DNA of 36,896 nt from a virus (taxonomy: Duplodnaviria; Heunggongvirae; Uroviricota; Caudoviricetes): the IMG/VR virus record IMGVR_UViG_643348551_000010; one strand, written 5' to 3'. The notes below the pieces were generated by a model, which saw nothing but the letters and a program-made list of their open reading frames with translations, made no database searches and was not told where the DNA came from. The translations under genes were made by a program, and so were the position numbers. Below, in pieces: positions 3,632-36,896 of the stretch; position 1 is the first letter of the stretch, and every line of letters starts with the position of its first letter.

Positions 3632-5134
3632 TTACACCTGTGCGACGTTATACCATGTGCCATTGATGTATTTTTGTATTGGTCTGAAGATGGCTTCATC
3701 ATCGCCATCTACTTCACCAATGATTCTTAATCCGGTAATTGCGTGTCCGGCTTTTTCATAACGACCACCACGCGCCATCAATTGAACAACACGCGTACCC
3801 AGGCGAACATCTTTCACATAACGGGAATCAAAGTTACCGTAATCCGAGGGGTTAACACGCCCTGTAATATTTATGGTTTTATTACTTTGAATGCTGCCGG
3901 AGACAAAGCGCATAACATGGACGTTATTAGCATAAACGTCCAGATTACCGTCGCCATTTTGTTTAAAGCCCGTGTCATTATCACCCAAAACAATCGAGTT
4001 ACCGCCAAGAGCACTGGATGTTCCGATACCCAGTGCACCATTCAATTGACCACCAGATAATGACAACGCCCCAACATCAGCAGCAGTCGGTTTTATGTGC
4101 GAACTGTAAATTACATATACAGTCCCATCTGTCAGGCCTGTCGGTTTATTCGCTGTATAAGTTGGTGATGTATGAATTTGTACAGTGGCATCCTTTGTAT
4201 AATCCCACTGGATATTAACACCCGTGGCGTAATTACCTATTTCTACATAAATGTCATAGGTATCACCGGATGTATTCACCCATGCAAAATTAGTAAATCC
4301 AACCGAGGTCCGTCGCCATAATGCACCAGTAATACCCTTTGGATTTCCATTTCCGGCACGCAGAACCAGCTCAGAGATGCCTGCTTGCTGCGGGGAGCCA
4401 ACGTTATACCCTGCACCACCAATCAGGCTTATGTAAACCACGGAACTGGCTTGTGGCATTGTTACAGTTGCCAGTTTGAACCATCCTGCACCACCATTAA
4501 AAGACATGGTTGTTGAATTTGTTGCTCCAATATTGCGCAGGAATAATCTTTTATCAGGAATATCTGCGCCATTCTGGTTTTTCTGCAACGCACCAGAAGC
4601 CTGATTTACCGTTTCCTGTAAACCGAGGTTTTGGATAAACAGCGGCTTATTGGGAATATCTGCTCCGTTCCGGTCTTTTGCCAGACGGGCATTGGCATTA
4701 TCCATCGCAATTTTCACCGCTTTTGCGGTGGCTGCCAGCGTTTCACTGGGGCTGTCAGTGGCACTGGTTAGCTGAACGAGTCCTTTTTTGTTCAGGCTGG
4801 CATCATAGATATCCAGATTTTCACGTGCTGTACGCTGTGCTGATGCCCCGGCAATTTTAATTTCGCTGAGGTTATTTTTTATCAGCAGCGCGTTATTGCT
4901 CATAATGGATTTAATGGACAGTGCAAGCTGGTTTAATTTTGTTTTATCCGGTTGAATACCGGCTTCTTCCAGCGTGTTTAATAACTCCGCCTGCACAATA
5001 TTAAACCAGTCCATGCCGGGCCATGTGATAACATTATTCCCGTCACCTTCTGAAAACCAGCGAACGATAGCACTACGCTGGGCGGATACGGGCGGCATGA
5101 CGGTTACGCCGCTGTCGTTATCAATATAAAACAT
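3632..5134 (-). CDS. S: Tail fibre protein S (constant part outside G joined to variable part inside G)
   Basis: 500-aa ORF spanning the gix site at 4613-4638; internal duplicated NGADIP.K.LF motif flanking the crossover region. Confidence 0.85.
   Translation of the reverse strand: MFYIDNDSGVTVMPPVSAQRSAIVRWFSEGDGNNVITWPGMDWFNIVQAELLNTLEEAGIQPDKTKLNQLALSIKSIMSNNALLIKNNLSEIKIAGASAQRTARENLDIYDASLNKKGLVQLTSATDSPSETLAATAKAVKIAMDNANARLAKDRNGADIPNKPLFIQNLGLQETVNQASGALQKNQNGADIPDKRLFLRNIGATNSTTMSFNGGAGWFKLATVTMPQASSVVYISLIGGAGYNVGSPQQAGISELVLRAGNGNPKGITGALWRRTSVGFTNFAWVNTSGDTYDIYVEIGNYATGVNIQWDYTKDATVQIHTSPTYTANKPTGLTDGTVYVIYSSHIKPTAADVGALSLSGGQLNGALGIGTSSALGGNSIVLGDNDTGFKQNGDGNLDVYANNVHVMRFVSGSIQSNKTINITGRVNPSDYGNFDSRYVKDVRLGTRVVQLMARGGRYEKAGHAITGLRIIGEVDGDDEAIFRPIQKYINGTWYNVAQV
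4613..4638. repeat. gix recombination site (S-internal)
   Basis: ttcctgtaaaccgaggttttggataa, inverted copy of 1566-1591. Inverted-repeat identity continues inward for about 46 bp perfectly and about 115 bp imperfectly. Confidence 0.85.
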
Positions 5135-5676
5135 TAGTTATCTCCGTCATGGTAAACAAATTTATAAATCTGATGCGCGGGTTTATATTTCTCCAGTAAA
5201 CATTCCAGCGCACCCGATTCATAAACACGTAACGGCGTCAGAACATTATCCAGCACCGTTGCGTTGCGATAATTTTTAATACCGTAAATATTGACCTGCG
5301 TAACCCACTGGCCTTCTGTGGAATCCGTCAGCCTGACGGTAAAACCGTACTGCGCAGCCAGCCATTCATAAAAGCGCCTACTCAGATTGCCGGTCATACG
5401 CATTTTATTTGCGGCAGCCCGCTGGCGTTCTGACAGGGTGCCGTTTTCGCTGGTACAGTCCGGCAACCCCAGAAATGATTCCCACTCACCCAGATACCAG
5501 CGGGATGTGGACGGGAAACGCTCCCGCAGCATTTGCCGCGCATCATCCGCCGCAGTGGCAATCACGTCGCTGATGGCCTGCGCCAGCGCAGATAATTTGC
5601 TGTCGGGGCTTTTATTCCAGGCAAGCCCTGACGGCAGTAATTGCAGAAAGGCCGTCTGATAGGGTGTTACAGCCAT
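5134..5676 (-). CDS. Tail or baseplate protein (Mu gp48-like, tentative)
   Basis: 180-aa ORF translationally coupled between the baseplate gene and S; position matches the Mu late operon. Confidence 0.65.
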   Translation of the reverse strand: MAVTPYQTAFLQLLPSGLAWNKSPDSKLSALAQAISDVIATAADDARQMLRERFPSTSRWYLGEWESFLGLPDCTSENGTLSERQRAAANKMRMTGNLSRRFYEWLAAQYGFTVRLTDSTEGQWVTQVNIYGIKNYRNATVLDNVLTPLRVYESGALECLLEKYKPAHQIYKFVYHDGDN

Positions 5677-25049: not shown

Positions 25050-25345
25050 TTGTTGTTCTCTCCGAGCGCCTTTTCGAGCAAAAGCTCCAGTTGATGGGTC
25101 AGCACCTGTATGTGCCGGTTCATCGCTTTCACTTCACCATTGGTTTCTGCGGTTTGTAACCGGACAGCATGTAAATCCTGTGCACTGGGCATGTTTTCGC
25201 ACTTCGTTTCAAGCGCGGTTAAACGGCTTTCGATTTGCTCCACACGTTCCGTACTGGCAAATGTACGCCTCACCGCCCACCACAAAATGCCACCAATGGT
25301 GCTGCCACTGCCTATCGAGTAGGTCAGCACTGAATAAATATCCAC
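25046..25345 (-). CDS. Lysis accessory membrane protein (N-terminal TM helix plus coiled coil; spanin- or releasin-like)
   Basis: 99 aa, GTG start at 25343-25345 just after the lys stop; hydrophobic N-terminus followed by heptad-like region. Confidence 0.55.
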   Translation of the reverse strand: MDIYSVLTYSIGSGSTIGGILWWAVRRTFASTERVEQIESRLTALETKCENMPSAQDLHAVRLQTAETNGEVKAMNRHIQVLTHQLELLLEKALGENNK

Positions 25346-25357
25346 ACGCTCTCCTGT

Positions 25358-25786
25358 TTACAGCCCTGACGACATACCCGGCATTAATCCCGGCACCGGT
25401 AACACATCATCATTCAGCAGCTGATTATTACGGGGAGCGGGCACAGCACCAGAACCGGCGCTGAACATAAACACCGCCAGTGCATTTTTTTGCTCCTCTG
25501 TCAGTGGCCTGTTCAGATGGGTATTTAACGTGTCATAAACAGGCTTCAAATCTGCTTTCAACAGCATGATGCATTCACCATAGCTGTAAGGGCGTTGCTG
25601 AATATCAGGACCGTGATGGTTAAGGCAAACAGTCAGTTCGCCGTGCTGATCTGTGTATGGAAGGTACTGAACAGAAGCCAGCGATGAATCACCATCGCCG
25701 GACAACTGCCAGCCACCACATGCCGCCAGTACCACGATGGCAAGCGTTCTGATGATGCGGGGGAGACGTTTTTTAAAATCGTTCAT
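25358..25786 (-). CDS. lys: Endolysin with signal-anchor / lipobox-like N-terminus (lysozyme-like core)
   Basis: 142 aa, ATG 25784-25786 with AGGAGG SD; N-terminus MNDFKKRLPRIIRTLAIVVLAACGG; core motif LTVCLNHHGPDI resembles lysozyme-like endolysins; first gene after C, as in Mu. Confidence 0.65.
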   Translation of the reverse strand: MNDFKKRLPRIIRTLAIVVLAACGGWQLSGDGDSSLASVQYLPYTDQHGELTVCLNHHGPDIQQRPYSYGECIMLLKADLKPVYDTLNTHLNRPLTEEQKNALAVFMFSAGSGAVPAPRNNQLLNDDVLPVPGLMPGMSSGL

Positions 25787-25858
25787 GAAACCCTCCTTCG
25801 GTAATAAAAGGAGGGTAACTCAGGGGAATTTGCAGACGGGGTTATTATTAATTAACAC

Positions 25859-25876
25859 AACCGGCCTGCACCGGTT
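25859..25876 (-). terminator. Stem-loop just downstream of C (candidate end of middle transcript)
   Basis: aaccgg / cctgca / ccggtt hairpin 13-30 nt after the C stop, followed by AT-rich sequence. Confidence 0.35.
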
Positions 25877-25888
25877 GATTGCTGTTAC

Positions 25889-26299
25889 TCAGAATAAATC
25901 GGGCTGATGTCGCCGTGAATGAAGTTTTCTCTGCCGGGCAATAATCTTGTAAATCTGCGGTTGTGACAGACGATGTTCACGCCGCAGCTCCTCTATGTTC
26001 CGACCGTTAAACTGGCAGTAAATCAGATCATCCCGCAACGCTGCCAGAAGTGCATCACCCCGGGGGATGTAATACTGCCGCCCCCCCAGGAACCATGATA
26101 AGGACATCACCTGTTTACGGGCTATGCTCCGTGCATCATCCACGCCCTGACGTTTCAGTTCTGTTTCCAGAACGTCAACCAGCTCAACCAGCGCGCGGGG
26201 CCAGCGGGCCTCCTGCTCAGGAGCCGGTATATTGTCGATATGATCCATTAACTGGCTTACAGCCGGATCATGTTCAAATAAATCCTGCTGATTTGTCAT
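25889..26299 (-). CDS. C: Late transcription activator C (Mor/C family)
   Basis: 136 aa; shares the C-terminal motif FNGRN..EL with the mor product at 27659-28048; located immediately upstream of the lysis genes. Confidence 0.85.
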   Translation of the reverse strand: MTNQQDLFEHDPAVSQLMDHIDNIPAPEQEARWPRALVELVDVLETELKRQGVDDARSIARKQVMSLSWFLGGRQYYIPRGDALLAALRDDLIYCQFNGRNIEELRREHRLSQPQIYKIIARQRKLHSRRHQPDLF

Positions 26300-26309
26300 T
26301 TTGCCCCCA

Positions 26310-26435
26310 TCAGCGAAAAACTAACAGACAGATCCCCGTGACTACGGCAAGCAGTGCAATAACTGTGATACCCTTCATCACCATCAGCAACGTAGCCATG
26401 CCGGAACATTCATTACTGAATCTTCTGTACATCAT
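26310..26435 (-). CDS. Very small single-TM protein (41 aa)
   Basis: ATG 26433-26435 forms an ATGA overlap with the stop of the upstream membrane-protein gene; hydrophobic core ITVIALLAVVTGICLLVF. Confidence 0.5.
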   Translation of the reverse strand: MMYRRFSNECSGMATLLMVMKGITVIALLAVVTGICLLVFR

Positions 26436-26812
26436 GCCTCCGCGCCAGACGGTACTGAACGTCGCAGACAGATATGGAGGCGAAAGCAAAACCATATGCT
26501 ACAGAAGCCAGATAAAGCATAAATCGTGAACTGATGCGCTTCTTCTAAAAGCCCGGTTGCAATAGCCGAAAGACTTAACCCGACGAGGCCACCAAGAAAA
26601 TCAATGGCATTAATAGAAGCATAACGTCGGATTTTTCCTGTCCGGGACAGATCATCAAAAATAGTGCCGGTAAAGCACAGCGCCACACTGAAAACGGCAG
26701 CATTCCAGAACAGCAGCGCCCGCAAACCATAAAACAAGCTGATAATCAGAATCAGCGCCAGCAACATGACCGGCAGACAATTTGGTAACAAATAACAGAA
26801 ACGCTTAAACAT
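26432..26812 (-). CDS. Integral membrane protein (multiple predicted TM segments)
   Basis: 126 aa, ATG 26810-26812, several hydrophobic stretches; middle-operon position upstream of C. Confidence 0.6.
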   Translation of the reverse strand: MFKRFCYLLPNCLPVMLLALILIISLFYGLRALLFWNAAVFSVALCFTGTIFDDLSRTGKIRRYASINAIDFLGGLVGLSLSAIATGLLEEAHQFTIYALSGFCSIWFCFRLHICLRRSVPSGAEA

Positions 26813-27023
26813 GATGCTTTTCCCTGTAACGCTGGCAGTGGTGAATAATTTCTGGCATATCGACTGACTGCCAGCCTTTCATGTAATAGCTCCCGTGGGT
26901 GCCATCGTGCCCTGTGTAATCCATTGGCTTTGGTGGTGGACCTCCGGCCTCCCGATGCAACACCTCCTGTCGTAAACGTTCGCGTCTGCCAAACCGAAAG
27001 GACGCATCCCACCCTTTACCCAT
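26805..27023 (-). CDS. Hypothetical middle-operon protein
   Basis: 72 aa; ATG 27021-27023 overlaps the stop of the muramidase gene, SD gggagg 8 nt upstream. Confidence 0.6.
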   Translation of the reverse strand: MGKGWDASFRFGRRERLRQEVLHREAGGPPPKPMDYTGHDGTHGSYYMKGWQSVDMPEIIHHCQRYREKHHV

Positions 27024-27576
27024 GCAGAACCTCCCGGCAGGCGCTGGCGAGCAGATCCAGACGGTTAAACCAGCCGTTCAGATATTTCCCCTGCGAGGCA
27101 CTGGATTTGATAATCCCTGCGTAATAGCGGGAACGACGCAGGAAACACTGCAACAGCAGCCAGTCAGTATCGGCACGCAGTACGGCTGCGCGAGTGTTTT
27201 TGCCGACGATGCCATCATCATCAACACCTGCTGCCGCCTGGAGGATTTGAATTGCGCGTTTAACACCGTGCTGAACGGCAGCATCAAAGACGAATAAGGA
27301 AACACCATCAGGCCATTCGTTACACTTTGCCGCCAGCCAGTAATCACGCCAGTAGATTTGCGCCGCCTGCTCGTGGGTTAAATCTTTAATACGGGTATCA
27401 GGCTTCCCGTCACCGTTAACATCGGTTTTGCCATCAATAACGCCGTCGCGACGGTCAGAAATGCCGTATTTGGTTTCGCCGCCACGGTCAGTGGGATCAT
27501 TAACGTAACCACCTTCAACATCAGGCCGTATAACAAAATTCAGCGAATGAAGGAATGCAGGGGAAAACTCAGGCAT
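27016..27576 (-). CDS. GH108-family peptidoglycan hydrolase-like protein (predicted muramidase with C-terminal PG-binding-like region)
   Basis: Motif EGGYVNDPTDRGGETKYGI typical of the GH108 N-terminal domain; start set at ATG 27574-27576 with SD aggaggg (the track start at 27609 is a GTG). Confidence 0.7.
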   Translation of the reverse strand: MPEFSPAFLHSLNFVIRPDVEGGYVNDPTDRGGETKYGISDRRDGVIDGKTDVNGDGKPDTRIKDLTHEQAAQIYWRDYWLAAKCNEWPDGVSLFVFDAAVQHGVKRAIQILQAAAGVDDDGIVGKNTRAAVLRADTDWLLLQCFLRRSRYYAGIIKSSASQGKYLNGWFNRLDLLASACREVLHG

Positions 27577-27632
27577 GTTGCCCTCCTGTAATGAACGTTT
27601 TATCGTCACAACAGAATATTGAGGGCGTAAAA

Positions 27633-27653
27633 AAAGCCGGATTAACCGGCTTT
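27633..27653 (-). terminator. Rho-independent terminator immediately downstream of mor (early-transcript terminator)
   Basis: aaagccgg / attaa / ccggcttt: 8-bp stem followed by a T5 run on the sense (minus) strand, 6 nt after the mor stop. Confidence 0.7.
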
Positions 27654-27658
27654 ACTGT

Positions 27659-28048
27659 TTAAAACAGAGGGGGTTGATACTGACGATACTTTATACGCCG
27701 CATTCGTCGGATGGCTTTATAGACAGTGTTAAACGTCACACCATAACGAATTGCCAGTTCGTGAACATTGCGCCCGTTAAAATCATTCCAGATTCGTAAA
27801 TCCCGAACCAGTGAATCCAGCACCTGCCCACGAGGAATATAGACCTGACCACCGCCAAGATGTTTACAGATAGCCACAACAATCTCCAGAGAGTGCGCAG
27901 GTTCAACGCCCAGCCGGGACAGTTCCTGACGCAGCACATCGTTCAGTTCCGCCAGCAGTGCCGGAAATCGTGACGTATCCCCGGATTCATTGTCAAGATG
28001 AGCCAGGATACTGTCATCCTGAAAGTCGCCAAACAAATCCTGCGTCAT
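27659..28048 (-). CDS. mor: Middle operon regulator Mor
   Basis: 129 aa; ATG overlaps the gemA stop (ATGA); paralog of C. Confidence 0.9.
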   Translation of the reverse strand: MTQDLFGDFQDDSILAHLDNESGDTSRFPALLAELNDVLRQELSRLGVEPAHSLEIVVAICKHLGGGQVYIPRGQVLDSLVRDLRIWNDFNGRNVHELAIRYGVTFNTVYKAIRRMRRIKYRQYQPPLF

Positions 28049-28611
28049 TGTGCCAGTCTCCGTGTTTTTCTTGCACGGGCATAAGCTGCTGTCATGGCAT
28101 CATAGCCACGCAGTTCACGCCCGGACGGGCTGACCGGCAACGGGAGCCCATAATGGGAAAAGGCTTCACGGATACAGCGGATGTGCCACTGTTTCAGGGT
28201 TTCAAGCACAATTTGTAACGATTCTCCGTGACACCACGCCAGCGTGGAAACACCCTGTCCGCCATTACGTCTGGCTGTCAGTCGTTCGACGTATTTATCC
28301 AGTGCTGTATCACTGCCATCGGCAATAAAACCGTCTTCTGCCATTTGCTGCCAGATTTTTAATACCTTTTCGTGGGGCGTTACATGCCCATTAAAGCGAC
28401 GGCGTGGGTGTTTATTCTGCTTCTTAAAACCGCGTTCTTTCATGGCATCGAGCACCAGCTCCAGTTGCGCGACGGTCAGCTCACGGCAACTGATTTTGCC
28501 CGTGTTCTGCATCAGAAAGGCACGGTAGGTGTCGTCGTCGAGTTGTAGCTCCCGACGGGCGACATGGATTAATTTAATAAGCGATGTGCGATTCACTTGC
28601 TCACCTCTCAT
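28045..28611 (-). CDS. gemA: GemA (host gene expression modulation protein)
   Basis: 188 aa from ATG 28609-28611 (MRGEQVNRTS...); immediately upstream of mor, as in Mu. Confidence 0.8.
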   Translation of the reverse strand: MRGEQVNRTSLIKLIHVARRELQLDDDTYRAFLMQNTGKISCRELTVAQLELVLDAMKERGFKKQNKHPRRRFNGHVTPHEKVLKIWQQMAEDGFIADGSDTALDKYVERLTARRNGGQGVSTLAWCHGESLQIVLETLKQWHIRCIREAFSHYGLPLPVSPSGRELRGYDAMTAAYARARKTRRLAQ

Positions 28612-28626
28612 ATTAAGGAATGAGAT

Positions 28627-29043
28627 ATGAAAATTGATTATGACGAGATAGCCAGAATATTTGATGTATTCCTGGAGGCCGACACTGCATTCATTCGACT
28701 GGAAGATGTCGGCTGGGATCGTTCTCAGCGGCACAGCGACAGCCATCAGAAGCTGGTTTTCCATCTTCTGTTGCTGGTTGAAAATGGTTTTATCAGCAAC
28801 AGATATCTGGAAACAGGCACCGCAAAAAGCATTGGTCTCACCCCGACAAGCCTCGGATATTCATATTCAGGCACCAGTGTCAGACTCACACAAGATGGTC
28901 ATGATTTTGCGAAAGCACTACATCAAAAACCCATTCTTGAGCGTATAAAACAGGAGCTTGCCGACGCCCCGATGACGCTCGTAACAGACGTCGGCAAACA
29001 GTGGTTAACCTCGTTTCTTAAAAAGAAACTCGGGATTGAATAG
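28627..29043 (+). CDS. Hypothetical 138-aa protein encoded opposite to the early operon (candidate prophage-expressed accessory gene)
   Basis: ATG 28627 with SD aagga 7 nt upstream; fills a 393-nt interval with no minus-strand ORF; start codon only 15 nt from the divergent gemA start; 3' end converges on the next early gene. Confidence 0.6.
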   Translation: MKIDYDEIARIFDVFLEADTAFIRLEDVGWDRSQRHSDSHQKLVFHLLLLVENGFISNRYLETGTAKSIGLTPTSLGYSYSGTSVRLTQDGHDFAKALHQKPILERIKQELADAPMTLVTDVGKQWLTSFLKKKLGIE

Positions 29044-29316
29044 TTCCCGGTTCATACGTTGCAGCACATCAAGGGCGGCGACAGCCGCCACTTTATCGTT
29101 GCCATCAGCAATAGTGCGGAGATTTTCAATAATCCAGTGAGGACTCAGTGACTCAGCAACAATGCCCAGTCGGTACGCCATGACCTCATCAATAGCCTGT
29201 TCGTAAGACGGGGCATATACAAAGGCCACAAAGTCGTTGACCTCGTTTTCCGGTAAACCACCGGCAATCAGCAGGGCTGTAAGTTCTTCTGATTTTGTAA
29301 ATACGCCATTATTCAT
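29005..29316 (-). CDS. Small early protein (Mu gp15-position, tentative)
   Basis: 103 aa from ATG 29314-29316, coupled to the stop of the upstream gene at 29309-29311. Confidence 0.55.
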   Translation of the reverse strand: MNNGVFTKSEELTALLIAGGLPENEVNDFVAFVYAPSYEQAIDEVMAYRLGIVAESLSPHWIIENLRTIADGNDKVAAVAALDVLQRMNRELFNPEFLFKKRG

Positions 29317-29467
29317 TCTGTTCACCTTCACAATTCATGCACGCCGTGTCATCGCCCATATCGCAGTGGTTGCATTTCTGTCCGCCACAATGGGGACACT
29401 CTTTCAGATATTCAGGTGCTTCATTACCGCAGGTCGGGCATTCCTGCTTTTCGTTTACGTTATTCAT
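29309..29467 (-). CDS. Small Cys-rich zinc-ribbon protein; start could be further upstream (to 29521)
   Basis: CPTCGN...CPHCGG...CNHC...CMNC pattern; ATG 29465-29467 coupled to the upstream stop. Confidence 0.55.
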   Translation of the reverse strand: MNNVNEKQECPTCGNEAPEYLKECPHCGGQKCNHCDMGDDTACMNCEGEQNE

Positions 29468-29642
29468 TTCGTAATACTTCCTCGCAATAAAAAATCTCAT
29501 TGGGATAACGTTTTTGTACATGTTCCATCACCTGCCTGCATATCTGCTCCGTGGGCCAGATTCTTTCCGTTACAGGTATGGCATCGCAGGCATCATTCCC
29601 GCAGGTGCTAACCAGCAGGACAAAGCCAATTGACTTAATCAC
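29460..29642 (-). CDS. Small early protein (60 aa)
   Basis: GTG 29640-29642 preceded by strong SD (ggagg, 6-nt spacer); no in-frame ATG upstream. Confidence 0.5.
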   Translation of the reverse strand: MIKSIGFVLLVSTCGNDACDAIPVTERIWPTEQICRQVMEHVQKRYPNEIFYCEEVLRNE

Positions 29643-29871
29643 TATTTGCCTCCATATGTTCCAGACGCTGTGCTTCGCGCATACACATCTGCGCAATCAT
29701 CATCTGGCGGGCAATGCCTGCACGAATAAACGAAGCTGCACGACGGAGATTTTTTGCATTCGCCTGTTGAATCAATGCAGGTACTGATGCCAGGCATTCG
29801 GCGCTGTCTTTAATCAACACCTCCGCTGTTATTTCCGGTGCTTGTTGCTTATTCCTCGTCATCTTCGTCAT
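29635..29871 (-). CDS. Small early protein (78 aa)
   Basis: ATG 29869-29871; ORF packed between neighbouring early genes. Confidence 0.5.
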   Translation of the reverse strand: MTKMTRNKQQAPEITAEVLIKDSAECLASVPALIQQANAKNLRRAASFIRAGIARQMMIAQMCMREAQRLEHMEANSD

Positions 29872-30157
29872 CCTTTACATTCAGCGTTACAGGAAATTTT
29901 TCGAATATGAAAAGGGCAAGCCTTGCCCCAAGTCTCAGAAGGTTTGCTTCCTTTGAATGTGCAGGGATAACACATTTCTCACCGTCATTGTCGAAGGTAA
30001 TATCCGCATCTTTTTTATCGATAAAAAAACGACATTCATCCACGCGTGCTTTATGCCATGCACATAAAGAGACAATGCATTCTTTCATTTCCTGATTCGT
30101 CATAAATATCACCATTTCAGATTCAGGCGCGAGCAATTCCCTGACGCATCGCGCCAT
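29849..30157 (-). CDS. Small early protein with strongly acidic C-terminal tail (DDEDDEE); start uncertain
   Basis: 102-aa ORF directly downstream of gam; alternative ATGs at 30115 and 30103. Confidence 0.5.
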   Translation of the reverse strand: MARCVRELLAPESEMVIFMTNQEMKECIVSLCAWHKARVDECRFFIDKKDADITFDNDGEKCVIPAHSKEANLLRLGARLALFIFEKFPVTLNVKDDEDDEE

Positions 30158-30197
30158 AATTAAAAGAAAGTTAATTAATTAAATATTAATGCTGGTA

Positions 30198-30722
30198 TTA
30201 AATACCGGCTTCCTGTTCAAACGGGATAATGGAAAAATCTTCAATTCCAGACTTAACCGTAATTCCGGCAACACCGGCAACTGCGCCTGGTTCATTCAGA
30301 ATTGCTTCTTTGTTGATTTCCTGCTTCGTGCGAATAAAGCGTTGCAGGCCAAGACGCTCCAGCGTTTCCATCACTGCGTCCATACCACGAATGCTTACTG
30401 ATGGTGGACGGACCCGCCACGATACATCACCGGTGACAAGATTCGCCGTCTTCACTTTGCCGCCGTTCGTCAGTTCGTCGCGGTTCGCTTCACACCATCC
30501 CTGAACGCCTTTTGAAAGGGTTTCAATATCGGTTTTAAGCGGTGCAATCCGGGCCGCAAATTTCTCCGTAATTTCCGCGATGGCATCATTCATTTCTGTT
30601 TCCAGACGTGATGCTTCGCGCTGTAAATCCCCGATGCGTTTAATGTCGGTAATCACCGCATCGCGGTTTTGTGGCACATAAGCTGCCGCGGCACTTTTGA
30701 TGCGTTTTGCTGGTTTAGCCAT
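30198..30722 (-). CDS. gam: Gam, host-nuclease inhibitor / DNA-end-binding protein
   Basis: 174 aa starting MAKPAKRIK; size and position match Mu Gam. Confidence 0.8.
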   Translation of the reverse strand: MAKPAKRIKSAAAAYVPQNRDAVITDIKRIGDLQREASRLETEMNDAIAEITEKFAARIAPLKTDIETLSKGVQGWCEANRDELTNGGKVKTANLVTGDVSWRVRPPSVSIRGMDAVMETLERLGLQRFIRTKQEINKEAILNEPGAVAGVAGITVKSGIEDFSIIPFEQEAGI

Positions 30723-30741
30723 AAATTAAAGCTCCTGTTAA

Positions 30742-31029
30742 TTAATATCCGCTGTATACAATGCTGGATACAGCACGATTGCTTAATTCCATCTTTCGGG
30801 CAATGACATGAATATCCAGCCCTTCTTTATAAAGTTCACGACATAAATACTTGTCATGTTCACTGATTCGGTATACACACAATGATATTCCGTGTCTTCT
30901 GGCATGTGCCCGGAGGGCGGTTGTGGCGACTTTCAGTTTTTTCGCCATTTCTTCGACGGTCATTTTCCCGACGTTGGCTTCGATAAACTCCCGGTCTTTG
31001 CGTGACCAGCGCTTACGTATACACTTCAT
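30742..31029 (-). CDS. Small HTH-containing early protein
   Basis: ATG 31027-31029 with strong SD (ggagg); helix-turn-helix-like segment MTVEEMAKKLKVATTALRAHARRHGI. Confidence 0.55.
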   Translation of the reverse strand: MKCIRKRWSRKDREFIEANVGKMTVEEMAKKLKVATTALRAHARRHGISLCVYRISEHDKYLCRELYKEGLDIHVIARKMELSNRAVSSIVYSGY

Positions 31030-31041
31030 TCCGGCCTCCAC

Positions 31042-31461
31042 TCAGAACAACATGGGGTTGCGCAGTGATGCTGGAATATGCCGCAGCGATAACTGAACCG
31101 CTTTCAGGGCAAGCGAGGAATAACAGCAGTGCGCCCAGCCTTTTGCCATTAACCGGTAATCGCGCCAGATACGCTGCCACATTTCACGGGCTTCAGGGTC
31201 TGATGCGCAGATGTATTCCCGGTCCATAACGTACTCCCATAAATCCACGTTGAACGCACCGCCAAATGCAATGGCGCGGGATATACTTTCGCCGCAATAA
31301 CGCGCACAGATGCTGTAATGGTCGAAAGCAATCAGGTAAGTTTTTTCATCACAACCATCAACTTTCCGGGCGCAAATAAACTCGCGTAATTCACCACCGT
31401 TGTTATTGCGTTCCTGAATTCGGATTAATGCCTGAATTTCATTTCGGATTTTGACGTTCAT
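31042..31461 (-). CDS. Hypothetical early protein (139 aa)
   Basis: ATG 31459-31461 with aagga SD; semi-essential region. Confidence 0.55.
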   Translation of the reverse strand: MNVKIRNEIQALIRIQERNNNGGELREFICARKVDGCDEKTYLIAFDHYSICARYCGESISRAIAFGGAFNVDLWEYVMDREYICASDPEAREMWQRIWRDYRLMAKGWAHCCYSSLALKAVQLSLRHIPASLRNPMLF

Positions 31462-31481
31462 TGTCAGCGTTCCTTTGTGAA

Positions 31482-31751
31482 TTAATGTCTGGCTGCATTT
31501 GGGTTATAGCTGAATAGTTCCCCCTCAGCTTCCAGCCCAAGCTCCCTGGCTGATTTCAACAACTCCTCGGTCGCTTTTTTAATGATTTCAGGAGCCATAC
31601 TCTTGATGATGCCTGCCATTACGTCATGTGGCCCGGTCTGGTCCTCAGGTGAGGATTCTTCCAGTCGCACATTCATATTTACGGCAAAACCTCCATTTTC
31701 CTGAAACTCAATATTTTCTGTATTGTTAAACTCAAAGATTACTTTTGCCAT
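31482..31751 (-). CDS. Hypothetical early protein (89 aa); start uncertain
   Basis: ATG 31749-31751 placed just after the stop of the upstream gene; the track ORF extends to 31889 overlapping that gene. Confidence 0.45.
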   Translation of the reverse strand: MAKVIFEFNNTENIEFQENGGFAVNMNVRLEESSPEDQTGPHDVMAGIIKSMAPEIIKKATEELLKSARELGLEAEGELFSYNPNAARH

Positions 31752-31764
31752 TTTTATTGCCTGC

Positions 31765-31977
31765 TTATTGATTAACGGGCGTTGCATTTGTGATTTCGTT
31801 AAGTTCACAAAACACATTTTCTGCGTGATGATGGTTGCCGACATGAACAGCCAGTTTTCGACCATCAACAAATTCAAAAATAACATCACCGTTAACAGTT
31901 GATTCCATTACACTGACATTATCAAGGTTAATTAACCGACCAATTCCCAGACTATCGTGAATATTTATCACCATCAT
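31765..31977 (-). CDS. Hypothetical early protein (70 aa)
   Basis: ATG with ggaga SD 9 nt upstream; directly downstream of kil. Confidence 0.5.
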   Translation of the reverse strand: MMVINIHDSLGIGRLINLDNVSVMESTVNGDVIFEFVDGRKLAVHVGNHHHAENVFCELNEITNATPVNQ

Positions 31978-31984
31978 TTAAATG

Positions 31985-32212
31985 CTATCTCCAAATTATC
32001 TGACAACCATTAAATCGGGCCGTCCATACTGAACGGGCAATCCCTGATTTATGCTCCATAATTCTGATGGCGCTCCTGACCAGCTCCGGTGGTGGGCAGG
32101 TAATCTCAAGAATCGGGCGTGCAACACCGAGATATGACTCATTAACGTGGCTACCGCGTGCCTGTAACCATGTCTTTACTTCCGTTGCCATTTTGATATT
32201 CCGTGACATCAT
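31985..32212 (-). CDS. kil: Kil-like host-killing / cell-division inhibition protein (assignment by position)
   Basis: 75 aa from the tandem ATG at 32210-32212; first gene downstream of B, as in Mu. Confidence 0.6.
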
Positions 32213-32225
32213 GATTTCTCTCTCC

Positions 32226-33164
32226 TTACGTACGCAGCAGGGTTGAAATATCAACATCCAGGTCTAATTCACGGAAAGCCTGACGCAGATAATCTTCATT
32301 AACACGTTCACCTTTGCCGTGGGCAGTCATGGCAGCAAGGCGCAGCGAGTGGTTCAGGATACGAAGTGCACCTGGCTTTTGCGCAATCTGCTGTAATAAT
32401 TCCCGTTCGTTTTCGCCGGTAATTTGCCAGGCATCCGCAATGGCCTTTACATCATCAATTTTGGTTTTATTGATTGCCGTCCGTTTTGCAATACGGGAAA
32501 ACAGGCGGGCAAATTCAACCGTTCTGTTTCCGCCGGTCATATTTGAATAAACGCGGTGATTCCCCATCAGAACAAGACCAATACGGGCGGATTCCTGTAA
32601 CAGGCGGAGTTCTTCCAGAACTTCTGCGCCAAGATGATCAGCTTCGTCGATAATGACCAGCCCCTGTGTACCTTCGAGACGGCGTCTCAAAGCGCGGGAG
32701 AGTGGCCCTTTACGACGCGGTGCGTCATTCATTCCCAGTTCATAAGCCAGTTCAGTCAGGCATTCCAGAACACTGGCGCAGGATGGGGTAATGGTGATCA
32801 TCCAGACATTGTTATTGGTGCGACGAAATTCGCGGGCTGCTTCAGTTTTTCCCACACCTGGATTACCGCAGATAACAGAAATACTTTCAGTCAGGCTGGC
32901 AAAGCGCATACTCGTCCAGATTTGACGTGCTGTTCTGGTTTCCACAAAACGAGGGGGTTCTGGCAGTTCTGCGGCGCGGTGATAGTTCTCCAGCCAGCGT
33001 TCCAGCGTCTGCGCAACACGTTCATTATCGCCGTTGTACTTGTTATTCACGAACGCGCTTAACGTTCCTGCGGCAACTCCAGATTCGCGGGCGATTTGCG
33101 CATAAGTTGTTTTTTCGCTTTCAACAAGCGTGCGCAGTCCTGCGCGAATATCAGAAATATTCAT
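32226..33164 (-). CDS. B: Transposition ATPase / target DNA activator B
   Basis: 312 aa with Walker A GNPGVGKT; immediately downstream of the transposase. Confidence 0.95.
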
Positions 33165-33202: not shown

Positions 33203-35200
33203 TTAAATGGCTTTTTTACGTCTGTTCTGTTCCAGAATATCCAGCGAATGATTCAGATATTCATCACGCTCAGTTTCGTATTCATCATCACGCTCCTGAT
33301 TCTTCACTCGTTCCGTATTACCGGAAGGCCGGAAAATGCCGACAATTTGTGATTCTGGTGCTTCAGGTTCGGCTATCTGCGGCAGCAGCTCTGCCACTTC
33401 CAGTGCATCCATTTGTTTCTGTGCCTTAATCGCTGCTTTCGTAGCAGATTTCAGTTGTTTCTGGCGGCGGCGATATTCACGGCCTGCCGCAGCATCATTA
33501 AACGCAACAGGTGCCAGACATTCCGCTTCACAGATAAACCGACCGTCAAGGGTGTAGCAATAAACCGTGCTGTGTAACTGCTGTGGATCAAATCTGACCA
33601 CAACTTTTTTTACTCCGGCATTCATTAACGCCATGTTGTAATAAACGTTTTTCGCACCTTTAAGGGAGCCACCAACTTTAAGCGCGAACTCGCCTTTACG
33701 TGAAACGTTCACTGCCTCGGCAGGCAGTAACAGCATCCGTTTTTGCTCTTCGGTAGGCTTACGCACAATCGTTCTGGCGTATTCACGCTCAAAAACGTCA
33801 TCAAACGAAAGTTTGCCTCCGCACATTTCTGTTTCACGGCCTGTTCTGGCATTGAACATCGCCACACCTTCGGCAAGGGTTTTCAGAAACAGCTCTGCAT
33901 CAACAGCGCGGTCGCCATAGTTATCAGGTTTTGCCTGCGGATTAGGCCCCGTATATGCGCCAGCCAGTGCCGGATGCTTATCAACGTATTCCTCAAGCCC
34001 ACCAACACCGAAAGCACGTTCAACAGGTTTTGCCTGGCCCCAGCCTTTACCGGCAACAACGCTTGTCCAGTGCATTTTCGCCCCCATCAGTAAAAACAGT
34101 CCTTTTGGATCGTCCTCTTTTACCTTAAAGCGGTAGCGATTGGGCGCGCCTCCCGTCAGCCATTTATTCGCAGCACCACGGGTGTTATCAATGGTGATGT
34201 GAAAATCCTCCGGGATACCGTAGCGAGTCACAACATCCATGAACGAGAGGCGAATTGAATCAATGTTCTCGCTCACATCGCAGCGCCAGCCCAGAATTTT
34301 TCGGGTTTTCACATCCTGCCAGAACCATGTTTTCGGACGGATCACATCACCGTTAAACCAGCGTACAAAGACGTTATGCAGATAACCGTCGCCGTTGATC
34401 CACTGCATGGCGTCCAGGTGTTCCACAGTTCGCTGCTGTGCCGGTATCAGATGCATCAGTGCATGTTCACCTTCACGGCAGGCAACAACCATTGCCTCGT
34501 CCAGTTGCTGAATCCGGCGAAAGGCCGTGGCACGGGAGGGAATACTCCAGCCATGCTCGCGGGCTGCCAGTTCCAGACGCTCATAACATTTGCGGAAGGC
34601 GGGTTTTTCCGGTCGCAGATAATCTGCAATCAGAAACTGCCAGGCATCCTCGTCAAATTCACTTTTGTGAACGTTGCGACGGGATGCACCACGTCCATCA
34701 ACAAGCGCAGCCGCCCAGTCAGGCTTCGCAAACTTCTGTACCTGGTAATACTTGTCCCGCAAAGTGGATGCGCTGACCTGGTAATGCCCTGCAACGGTCG
34801 CAAAAGCCGTTTTTGTTGAAATCCCCTGGTTCAGCATTTCGTCTGCAGCCTGAACCGCAGGCAACCATTTTTCAGCAAGTCTGCGCTGGGAATCGCTGGC
34901 GTTATCCCATTTGCTCCACAGTGCCTCACGATCATAATCATGGGCTTCCAGCGTGGGGCGGGCGATTTCAAAATACCCCTGGCTTGTTTCTATTTGCTCA
35001 GATTTTAATAACAACTCAGCACGTGCTGCCGCTGGTAGAACTGATATATGAAATTCCAAAGCCTTTGAACCCGTACGCTTGCGACGTAGTTCTGGATGAT
35101 TGGCTGCAAGCTTTTCAAGATTGCGGCGAATACTCACCTCATGTTTAGGAAAGCATGACATTCCTACGCATTCTTGCGCTGTTACCCAATGGGTTAACAT
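33203..35200 (-). CDS. A: DDE transposase A (MuA family); N-terminal DNA-binding domain appears divergent from canonical Mu (D108-like)
   Basis: 665 aa from ATG 35198-35200 (MLTHWV...), overlapping the ner stop; the track start at 35230 is a TTG. Confidence 0.95.
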
Positions 35201-35421
35201 GATGTTTTCTCCATATACCGAGAAGGCCAAATCTGGGCTGGTTCCATATCCAAATATCTAGCAATGATTGCTTCGTATCGTGGTATATGGCAGCGAAATA
35301 CGTTACGCATAGTGTCAGGCTTTAAGCCTGCCTCTCTGGATAATTGAGATAGTGTCTTCCCCTTCATACGAACAGCAGCCTTTATCTGCTCTGCGTGCCA
35401 GTCTTGGTTTTTTGCTGACAT
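35194..35421 (-). CDS. ner: Ner-like early transcriptional regulator (DNA-binding)
   Basis: 75 aa from ATG 35419-35421 with aagga SD; conserved DWH motif; sequence appears to differ from canonical Mu Ner, as expected for a D108-like immunity type. Confidence 0.85.
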
Positions 35422-35590
35422 TCTGCGATCCTTACTCACTTAACGTTTTCGGTAACTGATACCGGCTACCGCTATCGGGAAAAACGATAGCGCAGAAAAA
35501 TGCGCATTTCAAGAGCTGTGCGCATTTTTATTTTAACAAATGCAAATCAAAGCATTCTGTAAAATTTTTTATATAACAGAGAGATTTAAC
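35422..35590. promoter_or_regulatory. Divergent early / repressor promoter-operator region between ner and c
   Basis: Perfect 8-bp inverted repeat cgctatcg-N7-cgatagcg at 35470-35492; direct repeats TGCGCATTT at 35501-35509 and 35519-35527; AT-rich tatata upstream of c. Confidence 0.6.
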
Positions 35591-36199
35591 ATGACAGGCG
35601 AAAAAGAAAGCAAAAATGCAGAGCGCATTTTTATGCCCTCGGAAATAATGCGTTTCAAGGAACGCCTTGAAGAGGCAATGAATGGAGAATCAAGCCGGGC
35701 GTTTGCAGCTAAGTGCGGACTTTCTGATGGGGTTATCAGAAACTACCTGTCTGGCAAGACATACCCGTCTTTAGATCGATTAGCACAAATAGCCTACGCA
35801 ACAGGGCGTCCAATAGAGTGGTTTATCCAAAGTCAGAGCATGCCAATGGTTGAGCATAAAAATGCTCGAGAGAATAAAAATCCTCAACCTGACCGCAGCA
35901 CATTGAAAACTAAACTGATCGCAATTGTCGAATTGTTAGAGGACAAGGAACTGCATTCTGCGATTGAGTTGTTCAGAAAGAAAGGATTTGAAGCTCTTAT
36001 GCCTGAGATTTTTTCTTCCGATGATTCCATCCAGGCTGATTTGCAAGGTATTTCGCAGCAAACCTTACAAACAGCCAAAATGCTTGAATCATTACCAACA
36101 GATACCCGTAAAGAGATTTTGTCAAAGTATGGTATTTATGAACAGGAATGTCTTGTAGCTCCTTCACAAGAACCACAAGATGTAAAAAAAGCCGTATAA
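35591..36199 (+). CDS. c: Prophage repressor c (lysogeny maintenance); N-terminal DNA-binding domain appears to differ from Mu c (from memory)
   Basis: Only long leftward gene at the phage left end; C-terminus ...SKYGIYEQECLVAPSQEPQDVKKAV resembles the Mu repressor C-terminus; start set at ATG 35591, alternative at 35540. Confidence 0.85.
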   Translation: MTGEKESKNAERIFMPSEIMRFKERLEEAMNGESSRAFAAKCGLSDGVIRNYLSGKTYPSLDRLAQIAYATGRPIEWFIQSQSMPMVEHKNARENKNPQPDRSTLKTKLIAIVELLEDKELHSAIELFRKKGFEALMPEIFSSDDSIQADLQGISQQTLQTAKMLESLPTDTRKEILSKYGIYEQECLVAPSQEPQDVKKAV

Positions 36200-36365
36200 C
36201 AACCATGAACCAGCTAAAACATACTTCACCTCACATAATCACACATGTAACATACCTAAACGGCATGAGCTGATTTGTGATATGAGTCATTTGGTTACAG
36301 CCTGGTTGTTATCGGTTTTGAACGTTTTTTGAAGCTGTTATTGAAATGATTTGCAGTGTTTTTGT

Positions 36366-36537
36366 TTTTCGTATTTTCAATGAAACAAAAGCAATTTTTT
36401 ACTATCTTTCGCGTTTCATTGATTAACGACTAAAATTTGCGCTACAGGCTTGCAAGCCCCACCAAATCTAATCCCATCAGATCCCGAATAATCCAATGTC
36501 CTCCCGGTTTTTTTCGTACTTCAAGTGAATCAATACA
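36366..36537. repeat. Phage left end (attL) with three transposase-binding sites L1-L3
   Basis: Matches to the MuA end-site consensus at 36511-36532, 36406-36427 and 36366-36387 (TTTTCG...TGAA..CA type on this strand); terminus caataca at 36531-36537. Confidence 0.8.
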
Positions 36538-36896
36538 ATCGGGATCACCAATGGAAGCTCTTTATAGCCCGCATCAAGATGGTTTTGCATTGCCGCAATG
36601 GAATAACGCATCATGCGAAAAGCCATTAATTCTTCCGGCTTACTTTGGTGCTCTATCACTACATAAATATAACCCACTCCCTCCTGCGTTTTCACAGACC
36701 ACAAGAGGTCGGAATAATATTGCCGCAGGTCGTCATCAATAAAACTGTTTGGTTCCAGTTTAAGCGTCGTTAAATCACACAGTTTGCGCAGCGGCGCGGG
36801 AAGATGAATATCAATAAAATCCCGCGCGGTGTCTGGATGGCGTAAAAAAGATTTAAATACCGCATCATGCGGCGTGGAAGTTGTCGATATTGTCAT
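36538..36896 (-). pseudogene. Host rpn-family (YhgA-like, PD-(D/E)XK recombination-promoting nuclease) gene, 5' portion only, disrupted by prophage insertion
   Basis: ORF starts [33 protein letters not shown]...IEHQS (Rpn-like N-terminus), reads for about 119 codons, then continues 20 codons into the phage end before stopping at 36477. Confidence 0.7.

Follow-up and report, generated by a model that had tools for sequence, protein, structure and literature searches.

Background

Bacteriophage Mu is the textbook transposable phage, in which the repressor and the transposase carry paralogous DNA-binding domains that compete for the same operator/enhancer sites. Its relatives D108 and SfMu are the paradigm of phages in which immunity, ner and the N-terminus of transposase A have been swapped together. 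Homology between the repressor and A domains is announced by the title of Mizuuchi et al. 1986, as given in the reference list of PMC3820752. XRE-type repressors beside transposases bearing the Ialpha (enhancer/operator-binding) domain are already known from the D3112-like phages of Pseudomonas (Casadabanvirus, e.g. vB_Pae_CF177b), where the repressor gene occupies the left end and is read away from the early operon, the neighboring transposase has an N-terminus of the Mu Ialpha type, and the repressor itself ends in a Peptidase_S24 autocleavage domain. Two further phages bear on the present case. Escherichia phage PhiR68_1 (PV340575) carries another cassette of neither Mu nor D108 type on a Mu backbone, and its winged-helix repressor is 67% identical to its own A N-terminus. 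Yersinia phage vB_YpM_5 (MT374853), an isolated Muvirus whose genes are all annotated as hypothetical, has a repressor (record positions 4966-5550) with Pfam matches to HTH_3 and Phage_CI_repr, that is, an XRE/CI-type domain on a C-terminal domain like that of Mu c, within the same gene order.

In this study, we analyzed the immunity region of a Mu-type prophage contained in a 36,896-nucleotide stretch of DNA, IMG/VR record IMGVR_UViG_643348551_000010 (hereafter the window), comprising the repressor gene c, the early regulator gene ner, the control region between them and the start of transposase gene A. A first-pass annotation, made from the sequence alone, had proposed that this region is a D108-like mosaic with an altered operator specificity. 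We report that the region departs from Mu as a single, sharply bounded cassette, and that its repressor is a chimera of an XRE/cI-type helix-turn-helix (HTH) domain and a Mu-type C-terminal domain. The A protein encoded here is exactly BAG78136.1 of E. coli SE11, a strain whose prophage PP_SE11-7 (36.7 kb, inserted in yfcI with a 5-bp duplication) was listed as 'Mu-like' in a study that did not analyze the immunity region (PMC2608844). Full-text searches of the literature gave no account of the cassette, nor of any XRE-type c within Mu proper.

Results

Extent of the immunity cassette

The window holds the prophage in reverse orientation relative to Mu (AF083977), with window position 1 corresponding to Mu 36602 and window 36537, the left end of the prophage, to Mu base 1, and the two DNAs are 92-95% identical over most of this length (blastn). 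Similarity ends at window 34993 (Mu 1529) and restarts at 36080 (Mu 458), enclosing a cassette of 1,086 bp that takes in codons 1-69 of A, all of ner, the control region between ner and c, and the greater part of c (Table 1). The difference from Mu within it is far beyond chance and its limits are sharp; one junction lies at the Ialpha/Ibeta domain boundary of A, and the other inside the C-terminal third of c. Similarity to D108 and SfMu breaks at the same position in A (34994/34993). On the attL side, identity is 95-97% to Mu bases 1-458 and to PhiR68_1 bases 8-479, and 80% to D108. The exchange is thus limited to c, the operators, ner and about 70 codons of A, between conserved flanks, and the alignments present it as a mosaic in the heteroimmunity style of Mu and D108, in which c, operators, ner and the A N-terminal domain appear to have been exchanged as a block.

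The first-pass annotation had stated that the repressor N-terminus, Ner and the first residues of A depart from Mu. Alignment of the three products against Mu and D108 bore this out and ruled out identity with either cassette: residues 1-104 of c show no similarity to Mu, Ner is 42-43% identical to its counterparts in Mu, D108, SfMu and PhiR68_1, and residues 1-68 of A are 29-37% identical to the same four (Mu 29%, D108 34%). The divergence in c had been described as N-terminal, which is too narrow, as it covers about 160 of 202 residues.

Domain structure of the repressor

Residues 1-104 of c lack detectable similarity to the repressors of Mu, D108, SfMu and PhiR68_1 alike, and residues 105-202 are 36-56% identical to them, the C-terminal half matching Mu c at 53% and PhiR68_1 c at 56% (blastp), with the last approximately 40 residues encoded in DNA that is 95% identical to Mu. 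The start codon at 35591 is favored by the alignment of the family; an alternative ATG at 35540 would give a protein of 219 amino acids. The exact c protein is present in databases as WP_000145456.1, annotated merely as 'helix-turn-helix'.

The N-terminus of c is placed in the XRE/Cro-cI group by its match to Pfam HTH_3 (PF01381; 30.6 bits, cut-off 23). An AlphaFold2 (AF2) model has five helices over residues 16-79, with a predicted local distance difference test score (pLDDT) of about 85-90, and its Foldseek matches are C.AhdI, P22 c2, 434 repressor and SinR (TMt about 0.8, root-mean-square deviation 1.3-1.5 Å). Over residues 19-85 this domain is 46% identical to the repressor HTH of Casadabanvirus. 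Searching the PDB by sequence with c recovered no Mu repressor DNA-binding domain at E <= 1, and gave only marginal matches to XRE proteins and HigA. The winged-helix family HTH_Tnp_Mu_1 (PF02316) scored 17.8 bits, below its cut-off of 23.3, so that c falls outside it, and this sub-threshold match joins residues 120-187 of the 219-residue reading frame to profile positions 76-133, which form the non-DNA-binding part.

The C-terminal domain belongs with those of the Mu repressors by blastp, by hhalign and by its ...KKAV/KKAG ending. When the XRE-type and winged-helix repressor families are compared as profiles, they align through their C-terminal domains only (hhalign probability 98.5%, E = 1.8e-15). 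No Peptidase_S24 match was found in c with Pfam, which separates it from the lambda cI and D3112-type repressors, and RecA-mediated cleavage is not expected because c is without this domain. Taken together, these profile and model matches show that c is an XRE/cI-type HTH joined to a Mu-type repressor C-terminal (oligomerization/regulatory) domain.

In Mu, D108, SfMu and PhiR68_1, the repressor N-domain and the N-terminus of the cognate A can be aligned, with 41-67% identity (E 1e-18 to 1e-26). The c protein of the window gave no alignment with its own A N-terminus even at E <= 100, and the Mu/D108-type homology between these two domains is absent. The first-pass annotation had explained the joint change of repressor and A operator-binding domain by the co-variation familiar from Mu and D108; that argument fails here, as the homology underlying it does not exist in this cassette.

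Transposase and Ner

For A, a 675-residue reading frame starting at TTG is an over-extension, and the ATG of 'MLTHW' was used. Residues 70-665 are 98.8-99.7% identical to A of Mu, D108, SfMu and PhiR68_1, lying slightly closer to D108 (99.7%) than to Mu. All four Mu transposase domains (PF02316, PF09039, PF02914 and PF09299) score above their cut-offs, and residues 4-78 match the MuA Ialpha domain in PDB entry 1TNS (E = 4e-7), identifying the product as a MuA protein. Ner, which lies between the early promoter and A, matches Pfam HTH_35 at 88.8 bits against a cut-off of 25 (E = 2e-25), and its exact sequence is found on at least 1000 enterobacterial contigs. The c, ner, A and B genes are all intact in the window.

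The control region between ner and c

The early-promoter-like site Pe is the only sigma-70 match in positions 35150-36560, and every relative, whether XRE-type or winged-helix-type, has it at the same position. Its spacer is filled by a 16-bp palindrome, GCGCA-N6-TGCGC, of which the window holds a single exact copy; no further copies occur at the prophage end or elsewhere in the window. The exact 11-mer TGCGCATTTTT is found just twice in 36.9 kb, both times between ner and c and 23 bp apart, and five of the 24 window matches with at most two mismatches to the unit fall within 137 bp, where about 0.09 would be expected by calculation. Two inverted units surround the -35 hexamer and a second pair stands 103-128 bp away at the start of c, a geometry that is also found in winged-helix-type loci and in Mu itself (CTTTTC units at 891-922 and 983-1019, with an IHF site between them). 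The operator-like repeats pointed out in the first-pass annotation are therefore real: they cluster between ner and the start of c, and their sequence is unlike the CTTTTC units of Mu. The different operator specificity that it had also proposed is a sound prediction.

Across loci, the operator arms change jointly and the promoter hexamers stay in place. Arms of the GCGCA..TGCGC type occur in the window and in loci L007 and L013, and those of the GCGAA-N6-TTCGC type in L011; L012 has GCGCA-N6-TACGC and Yersinia has CGCATAAAAACACG, each as a pair of inverted copies. Among the loci compared, SDG in the recognition helix is paired with GCGCA arms, and the SDT repressors of L009, L011 and L014 are paired with units of the GCGAA/TTCGC type. 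In three specificity types among the relatives, the unit inside c keeps pace with that of the Pe region, by changes that include a synonymous CGC-to-CGA replacement and a change from RIF to RVF in the encoded peptide; because the unit in the first codons of c follows the changes in the Pe region, a real intragenic operator can be argued for. The peptide concerned, NAERIF (window 35612-35635, c codons 8-15), lies in the low-confidence N-terminal tail of the model and is nearly invariant in the family, and the DNA coding for it is an operator unit whose changes run parallel to those of the unit near the promoter (GCGCATTTTT, GCGAATTTTT, CGTGTTTTT). Conservation of the peptide may be imposed at the DNA level.

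Most loci also have an inverted repeat between the promoter and the ribosome-binding site of ner, conserved in position and with compensating changes in its arms (L007-L014, L017, L027 and L032); examples are CGGTAGCCG-ccat-CGGCTACCG, CGGATACCG-ctaa-CGGTATCCG and CGTTCACC-tacatc-GGTGAACG. In the window the repeat at 35450-35471 matches at 7 of 9 positions, and the -10 hexamer is covered by a perfect 8-bp repeat (35470-35492). An inverted repeat occupies the corresponding site in both D108 and PhiR68_1. By analogy, this element is a candidate Ner operator; it could also be a leader RNA hairpin.

Comparison with described phages

As in Mu, the gene order, orientation and place beside attL are kept, operator units lie in and around the early promoter with a second cluster about 100 bp off at the start of c, and the likeness extends to the repressor C-terminal domain (53%), A residues 70-665 (99%) and attL (95%). 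Unlike Mu, whose repressor binds DNA by a winged helix paralogous to MuA Ialpha, the window c has an XRE HTH, its units consist of TGCGCA plus an A-tract where Mu has CTTTTC(A), and Ner and Ialpha are 42% and 29% identical, respectively. D108 and SfMu share the same exchanged block and A junction. Their alleles, however, are different throughout, D108 retains a c/A paralogy (55-60% identity) that the window cassette does not, and the C-terminal end of c and attL of the window are Mu-like. PhiR68_1 has the closest C-terminal half of c (56%) and attL (96.6%), yet its repressor is of the winged-helix kind. The Casadabanvirus repressors resemble the window c in their XRE HTH and in the arrangement of the genes, and differ from it in their C-terminal domain, which in the window is Mu-type. 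Lastly, vB_YpM_5 resembles the window in the build of its repressor, but its c is only 32% and its A overall only 25% identical, and its control region is full of AAAAGAAAG units resembling those of the winged-helix-type locus L032.

Relatives and origin of the cassette

The cassette DNA was found in none of 50,697 phage records, and at the protein level these gave distant XRE repressors only. Among 5,426 complete E. coli genomes, the flanks occur in 71 and the whole cassette in one, strain N1286, where it is 99.5% identical and lies at another insertion site, agaC. GTDB species representatives contain full-length relatives in one Shigella, one E. coli and one Yersinia copy only. Protein searches delimit a small family of HTH_3 repressors on the Mu-type C-terminal scaffold in assemblies of E. 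coli/Shigella, Citrobacter, Yersinia and others, HTH_3 being carried by 15 full-length-type homologues. Seven loci from six of the homologues (L007-L014) all have the order c(XRE), ner, A, B, kil, and in six distinct loci (L007, L009, L011-L014) the A N-terminus is of one subtype, WVT.QEC.G..P....IRR.LE....EL.RKR.GSKA.E. The A core and B of these XRE-type relatives are only 46-82% identical to those of the window, and the cassette is therefore native to Mu-like phages that are more distant. The closest relative is a Citrobacter-type locus (Ialpha 80%, Ner 92% and c DNA-binding domain 72% identical), and the most likely source of the cassette would be a more distant enterobacterial Mu-like lineage with Citrobacter-type members. 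We regard it as very likely that the window phage is a Mu backbone that acquired the cassette by recombination as one 1.09-kb block.

The Citrobacter-type prophage occurs with the same cassette genes, c to kil, between different host flanks in L007 and L008. Together with the intact genes, the second insertion site in agaC and the 5-bp duplication (PMC2608844), these differing flanks are evidence for an active element. Decayed cassette copies, with c 97% identical, were observed in Shigella flexneri SFBU1023 and E. coli ECMA0423 (L015, L016); in these a stop codon follows directly after Ialpha (IETS*), about 1.7 kb separates the displaced A from c, and the operator in the promoter spacer carries mutations (AAAAATGCTCA). 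In XRE-type loci other than L013, ner and A abut or overlap; L013 has an extra open reading frame of 153 codons between them on the opposite strand (L013:3142-3603), without a Pfam match.

An exhaustive phmmer search with A residues 1-69 returned A fragments together with many repressors of 150-205 amino acids, which have a winged-helix domain of the same Ialpha subtype (47-59% identity) and are homologous to the XRE family in their C-terminal domain. Such winged-helix repressors adjoin ner and A in IMG/VR loci; between one of these loci, L032, and the XRE-type locus L011, the Ialpha domains of A share 85% identity. Since loci with Ialpha domains this similar carry winged-helix repressors on the same C-terminal scaffold, the simplest reading is that the DNA-binding domain of the repressor was swapped on a conserved C-terminal scaffold with A unchanged. 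Transposable phages are the native setting of the incoming XRE domain. Sub-modular repressor genes have been noted in Pseudomonas transposable phages (PMC3564109).

The remainder of the prophage and its setting

The first-pass annotation stated that the rest of A, B and most of the genome follow Mu closely. This holds for A residues 70-665 (about 99% identical), but several segments between about 25.1 and 32.0 kb are replaced or only 72-85% identical. The semi-essential early region (approximately 25099-31985) is strongly mosaic against Mu, alternating stretches at this lower identity with stretches that have no blastn match (e.g. 25099-25890, 28596-29306, 29450-30121 and 31477-31985). Of the 312 residues of the MuB allele, 32 are unlike those of Mu and D108, 23 of them within residues 16-98 (the N-terminal domain), and Mu B and D108 B are themselves separated by just two differences; this patch (mainly about 32870-33120) is a second, smaller mosaic patch beside the near-identical A core. 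In the host flank at 36538-36896 lies the 5' portion of a gene of the YhgA/Rpn family (Pfam PF04754), which is interrupted by the left end of the prophage and whose profile match breaks off at position 113 of 203, in agreement with the yfcI insertion of PP_SE11-7 in E. coli SE11; the last base of the window coincides with the start codon of this gene. Searches for Rfam families and tRNA genes found none anywhere in the window.

Table 1. Positions of the cassette, its genes, domains and candidate control elements in the window
Feature	Position	Strand	Basis or remark
Exchanged immunity cassette	34994-36079	.	no blastn match to Mu; flanks 92-95% identical
c repressor gene	35591-36199	+	202 aa; position and orientation as Mu c
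XRE/cI-type five-helix HTH DNA-binding domain of c (residues 16-79)	35636-35827	+	Pfam, AF2, Foldseek
Mu-type repressor C-terminal domain (residues 101-202)	35891-36196	+	blastp, hhalign
A, transposase	33203-35200	-	665 aa from ATG 'MLTHW'; four Mu transposase Pfam domains
A residues 1-69, divergent winged-helix Ialpha (enhancer/operator-binding) domain	34994-35200	-	1TNS match
ner	35194-35421	-	75 aa; Cro-like early regulator; Pfam HTH_35
Control region with early promoter and operator units	35422-35590	.	between ner and c
Early-promoter-like site Pe, toward ner-A-B	35484-35512	-	-35 TTGAAA 35512-35507; -10 TATCGT 35489-35484
Palindromic operator GCGCA-GAAAAA-TGCGC	35490-35505	.	fills 17-bp Pe spacer
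Unit AAAAATGCGCA	35496-35506	+	exact
Unit AAAAATGCGCA	35519-35529	-	exact; directly upstream of Pe -35 hexamer
Unit AAAAATGCGCA	35622-35632	-	1 mismatch
Unit AAAAATGCGCA	35612-35622	+	2 mismatches
Unit AAAAATGCGCA	35501-35511	-	2 mismatches
O1-like operator-unit pair in first codons of c (AAAAATGCAGA / AGCGCATTTTT)	35612-35632	.	motif match, relatives
Imperfect inverted repeat CGGTAACTG-atac-CGGCTACCG, candidate Ner operator	35450-35471	.	between Pe start and ner
B	32226-33164	-	MuB Pfam match
Mu left end / attL region	36200-36537	.	Mu/PhiR68_1-like

Discussion

We consider it likely that the region is the lysogeny and early-control cassette of a Mu-family prophage that is itself intact, that this cassette was exchanged in one block, and that it is governed by a chimeric XRE/Mu-type repressor working as follows. 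The c protein would bind the TGCGCA/A-tract units, namely the palindrome in the promoter spacer, the inverted unit upstream of the -35 hexamer and the pair in the first codons of c, and would thereby occlude the early promoter and shut off ner-A-B. Through its Mu-type C-terminal domain it would probably bridge both unit clusters, as the Mu repressor does at O1/O2. Ner would act at the inverted repeat between the promoter and ner, and the Ialpha domain of A would use the same region as transposition enhancer; such a use of the region by Ialpha would explain why this domain was exchanged together with the operators. Immunity and enhancer specificity would then differ from those of both Mu and D108, and end recognition and catalysis would stay those of Mu. 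The comparisons establish the anatomy of the sequence, the domain identities, the limits of the mosaic, the clustering of the motifs and their co-variation across relatives; the pairing of proteins with sites and a retained enhancer function are inferred, and heteroimmunity to Mu and D108 would be predicted because the repressor fold is unrelated and the operator units are different.

Several observations weigh against this account. Only one clear two-armed palindrome, of the kind expected to suit a dimeric XRE domain, occurs among the four or five units; the others are oriented half-sites plus an A-tract, an arrangement more typical of monomeric winged-helix sites, so c may act at only some of the proposed sites, or most of the units may serve Ialpha. 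Loci L011 and L032, with Ialpha domains 85% identical, have different repeated units (AAAAATTCGC vs AAAAGAAAG), which would mean either that a few changes in the recognition helix shift specificity or that Ialpha does not read those units. No promoter for c met the scan criteria on the + strand of 35150-36560, and for IHF the space between the unit clusters offers only a near-consensus match, AATCAAAGCATTC at 35545, which is not conserved in relatives. A tentative elaboration, to which we attach a good deal less confidence than to the cassette as such, is that the operators overlie the winged-helix units of Ialpha and that an XRE repressor may have been recruited to them; competition between repressor and transposase would then be kept by convergent recognition and not by ancestry, the same A-tract units would be read by two folds, and the NAERIF peptide would be a by-product of the embedded operator.

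The alternative that fares best is that repressor and transposase no longer share sites, with the XRE domain acting on the promoter palindrome only and Ialpha binding elsewhere, or persisting as a vestigial passenger linked to ner, so that the immunity-enhancer coupling of Mu would be lost. The unrelatedness of the two folds, the single good palindrome and the contrast between L011 and L032 all speak for it, and Casadabanvirus phages likewise pair an XRE repressor with an Ialpha-bearing transposase. Against it, Ialpha is intact in six of six XRE-type loci and always travels with the cassette, the number of units, their orientation pattern and the O2/O1 spacing match winged-helix-type loci and Mu, and the units retain the oriented A-tract typical of winged-helix-type units. 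On this balance such an uncoupling seems possible but doubtful.

Two other explanations can be given much less credit. That the prophage is a decaying remnant, its hybrid c a non-functional scar of recombination, is suggested by the stop codon in A and mutated operator of the SFBU1023 and ECMA0423 copies, and by the truncated Shigella fragments that make up many of the cluster members; we judge it improbable, given that c, ner, A and B of the window are undamaged and its operator units exact, that the N1286 cassette occupies another chromosomal site at 99.5% identity, and that the architecture is conserved across 30-97% sequence divergence in several genera. Still less credible is that the HTH_3 reading frame is some other small regulator, for instance an antitoxin-like XRE protein displacing c. 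Its weak PDB sequence matches are indeed HigA antitoxins and anonymous XRE proteins, and its database names are generic, yet it has the exact position and orientation of c between attL and ner, homology to Mu-family repressors extends over its last 100 residues and includes the ...KKAV end, annotated repressors from transposable phages of Pseudomonas are the nearest matches to its DNA-binding domain, and no toxin partner reading frame is present.

The idea that the cassette is the D108 (or SfMu) immunity type, an already characterized heteroimmune allele, can practically be dismissed: the first-pass label of a D108-like mosaic fits the block pattern and the A junction, which are those seen between Mu and D108, and an A core slightly nearer D108, but not the alleles, as near-identity of c, ner and the A N-terminus is missing (c N-terminus unlike that of D108 and SfMu, with its DNA-binding domain in a different Pfam family; Ner 42%; A 1-68 or 1-69 about 34-37%), attL is 80% identical to D108 against 95% to Mu, and the cassette occurs in 0 of 50,697 phage records.

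The components of the cassette are all known, and mosaic exchange of immunity modules is expected, so that the general picture of mosaic phage immunity is unchanged. The new feature, set against the Mu/D108 paradigm as described, is a backbone of Mu proper with a repressor chimera of XRE HTH and Mu C-terminal domain, in which the paralogy of c and A is broken. Annotation as immunity repressors of the Mu family could be given to hundreds of database entries that so far bear only the label 'helix-turn-helix domain-containing protein'. The phage is probably a further heteroimmune Mu which, if true, would allow compatible mini-Mu tools and lysogens with two Mu-type elements. The prophage is also a natural near-isogenic Mu, with a 99% identical A core and Mu-like ends, that has an XRE repressor domain and has kept the winged-helix Ialpha, and it allows one to ask directly whether the coupling of immunity and enhancer needs shared domain ancestry or merely overlapping sites.

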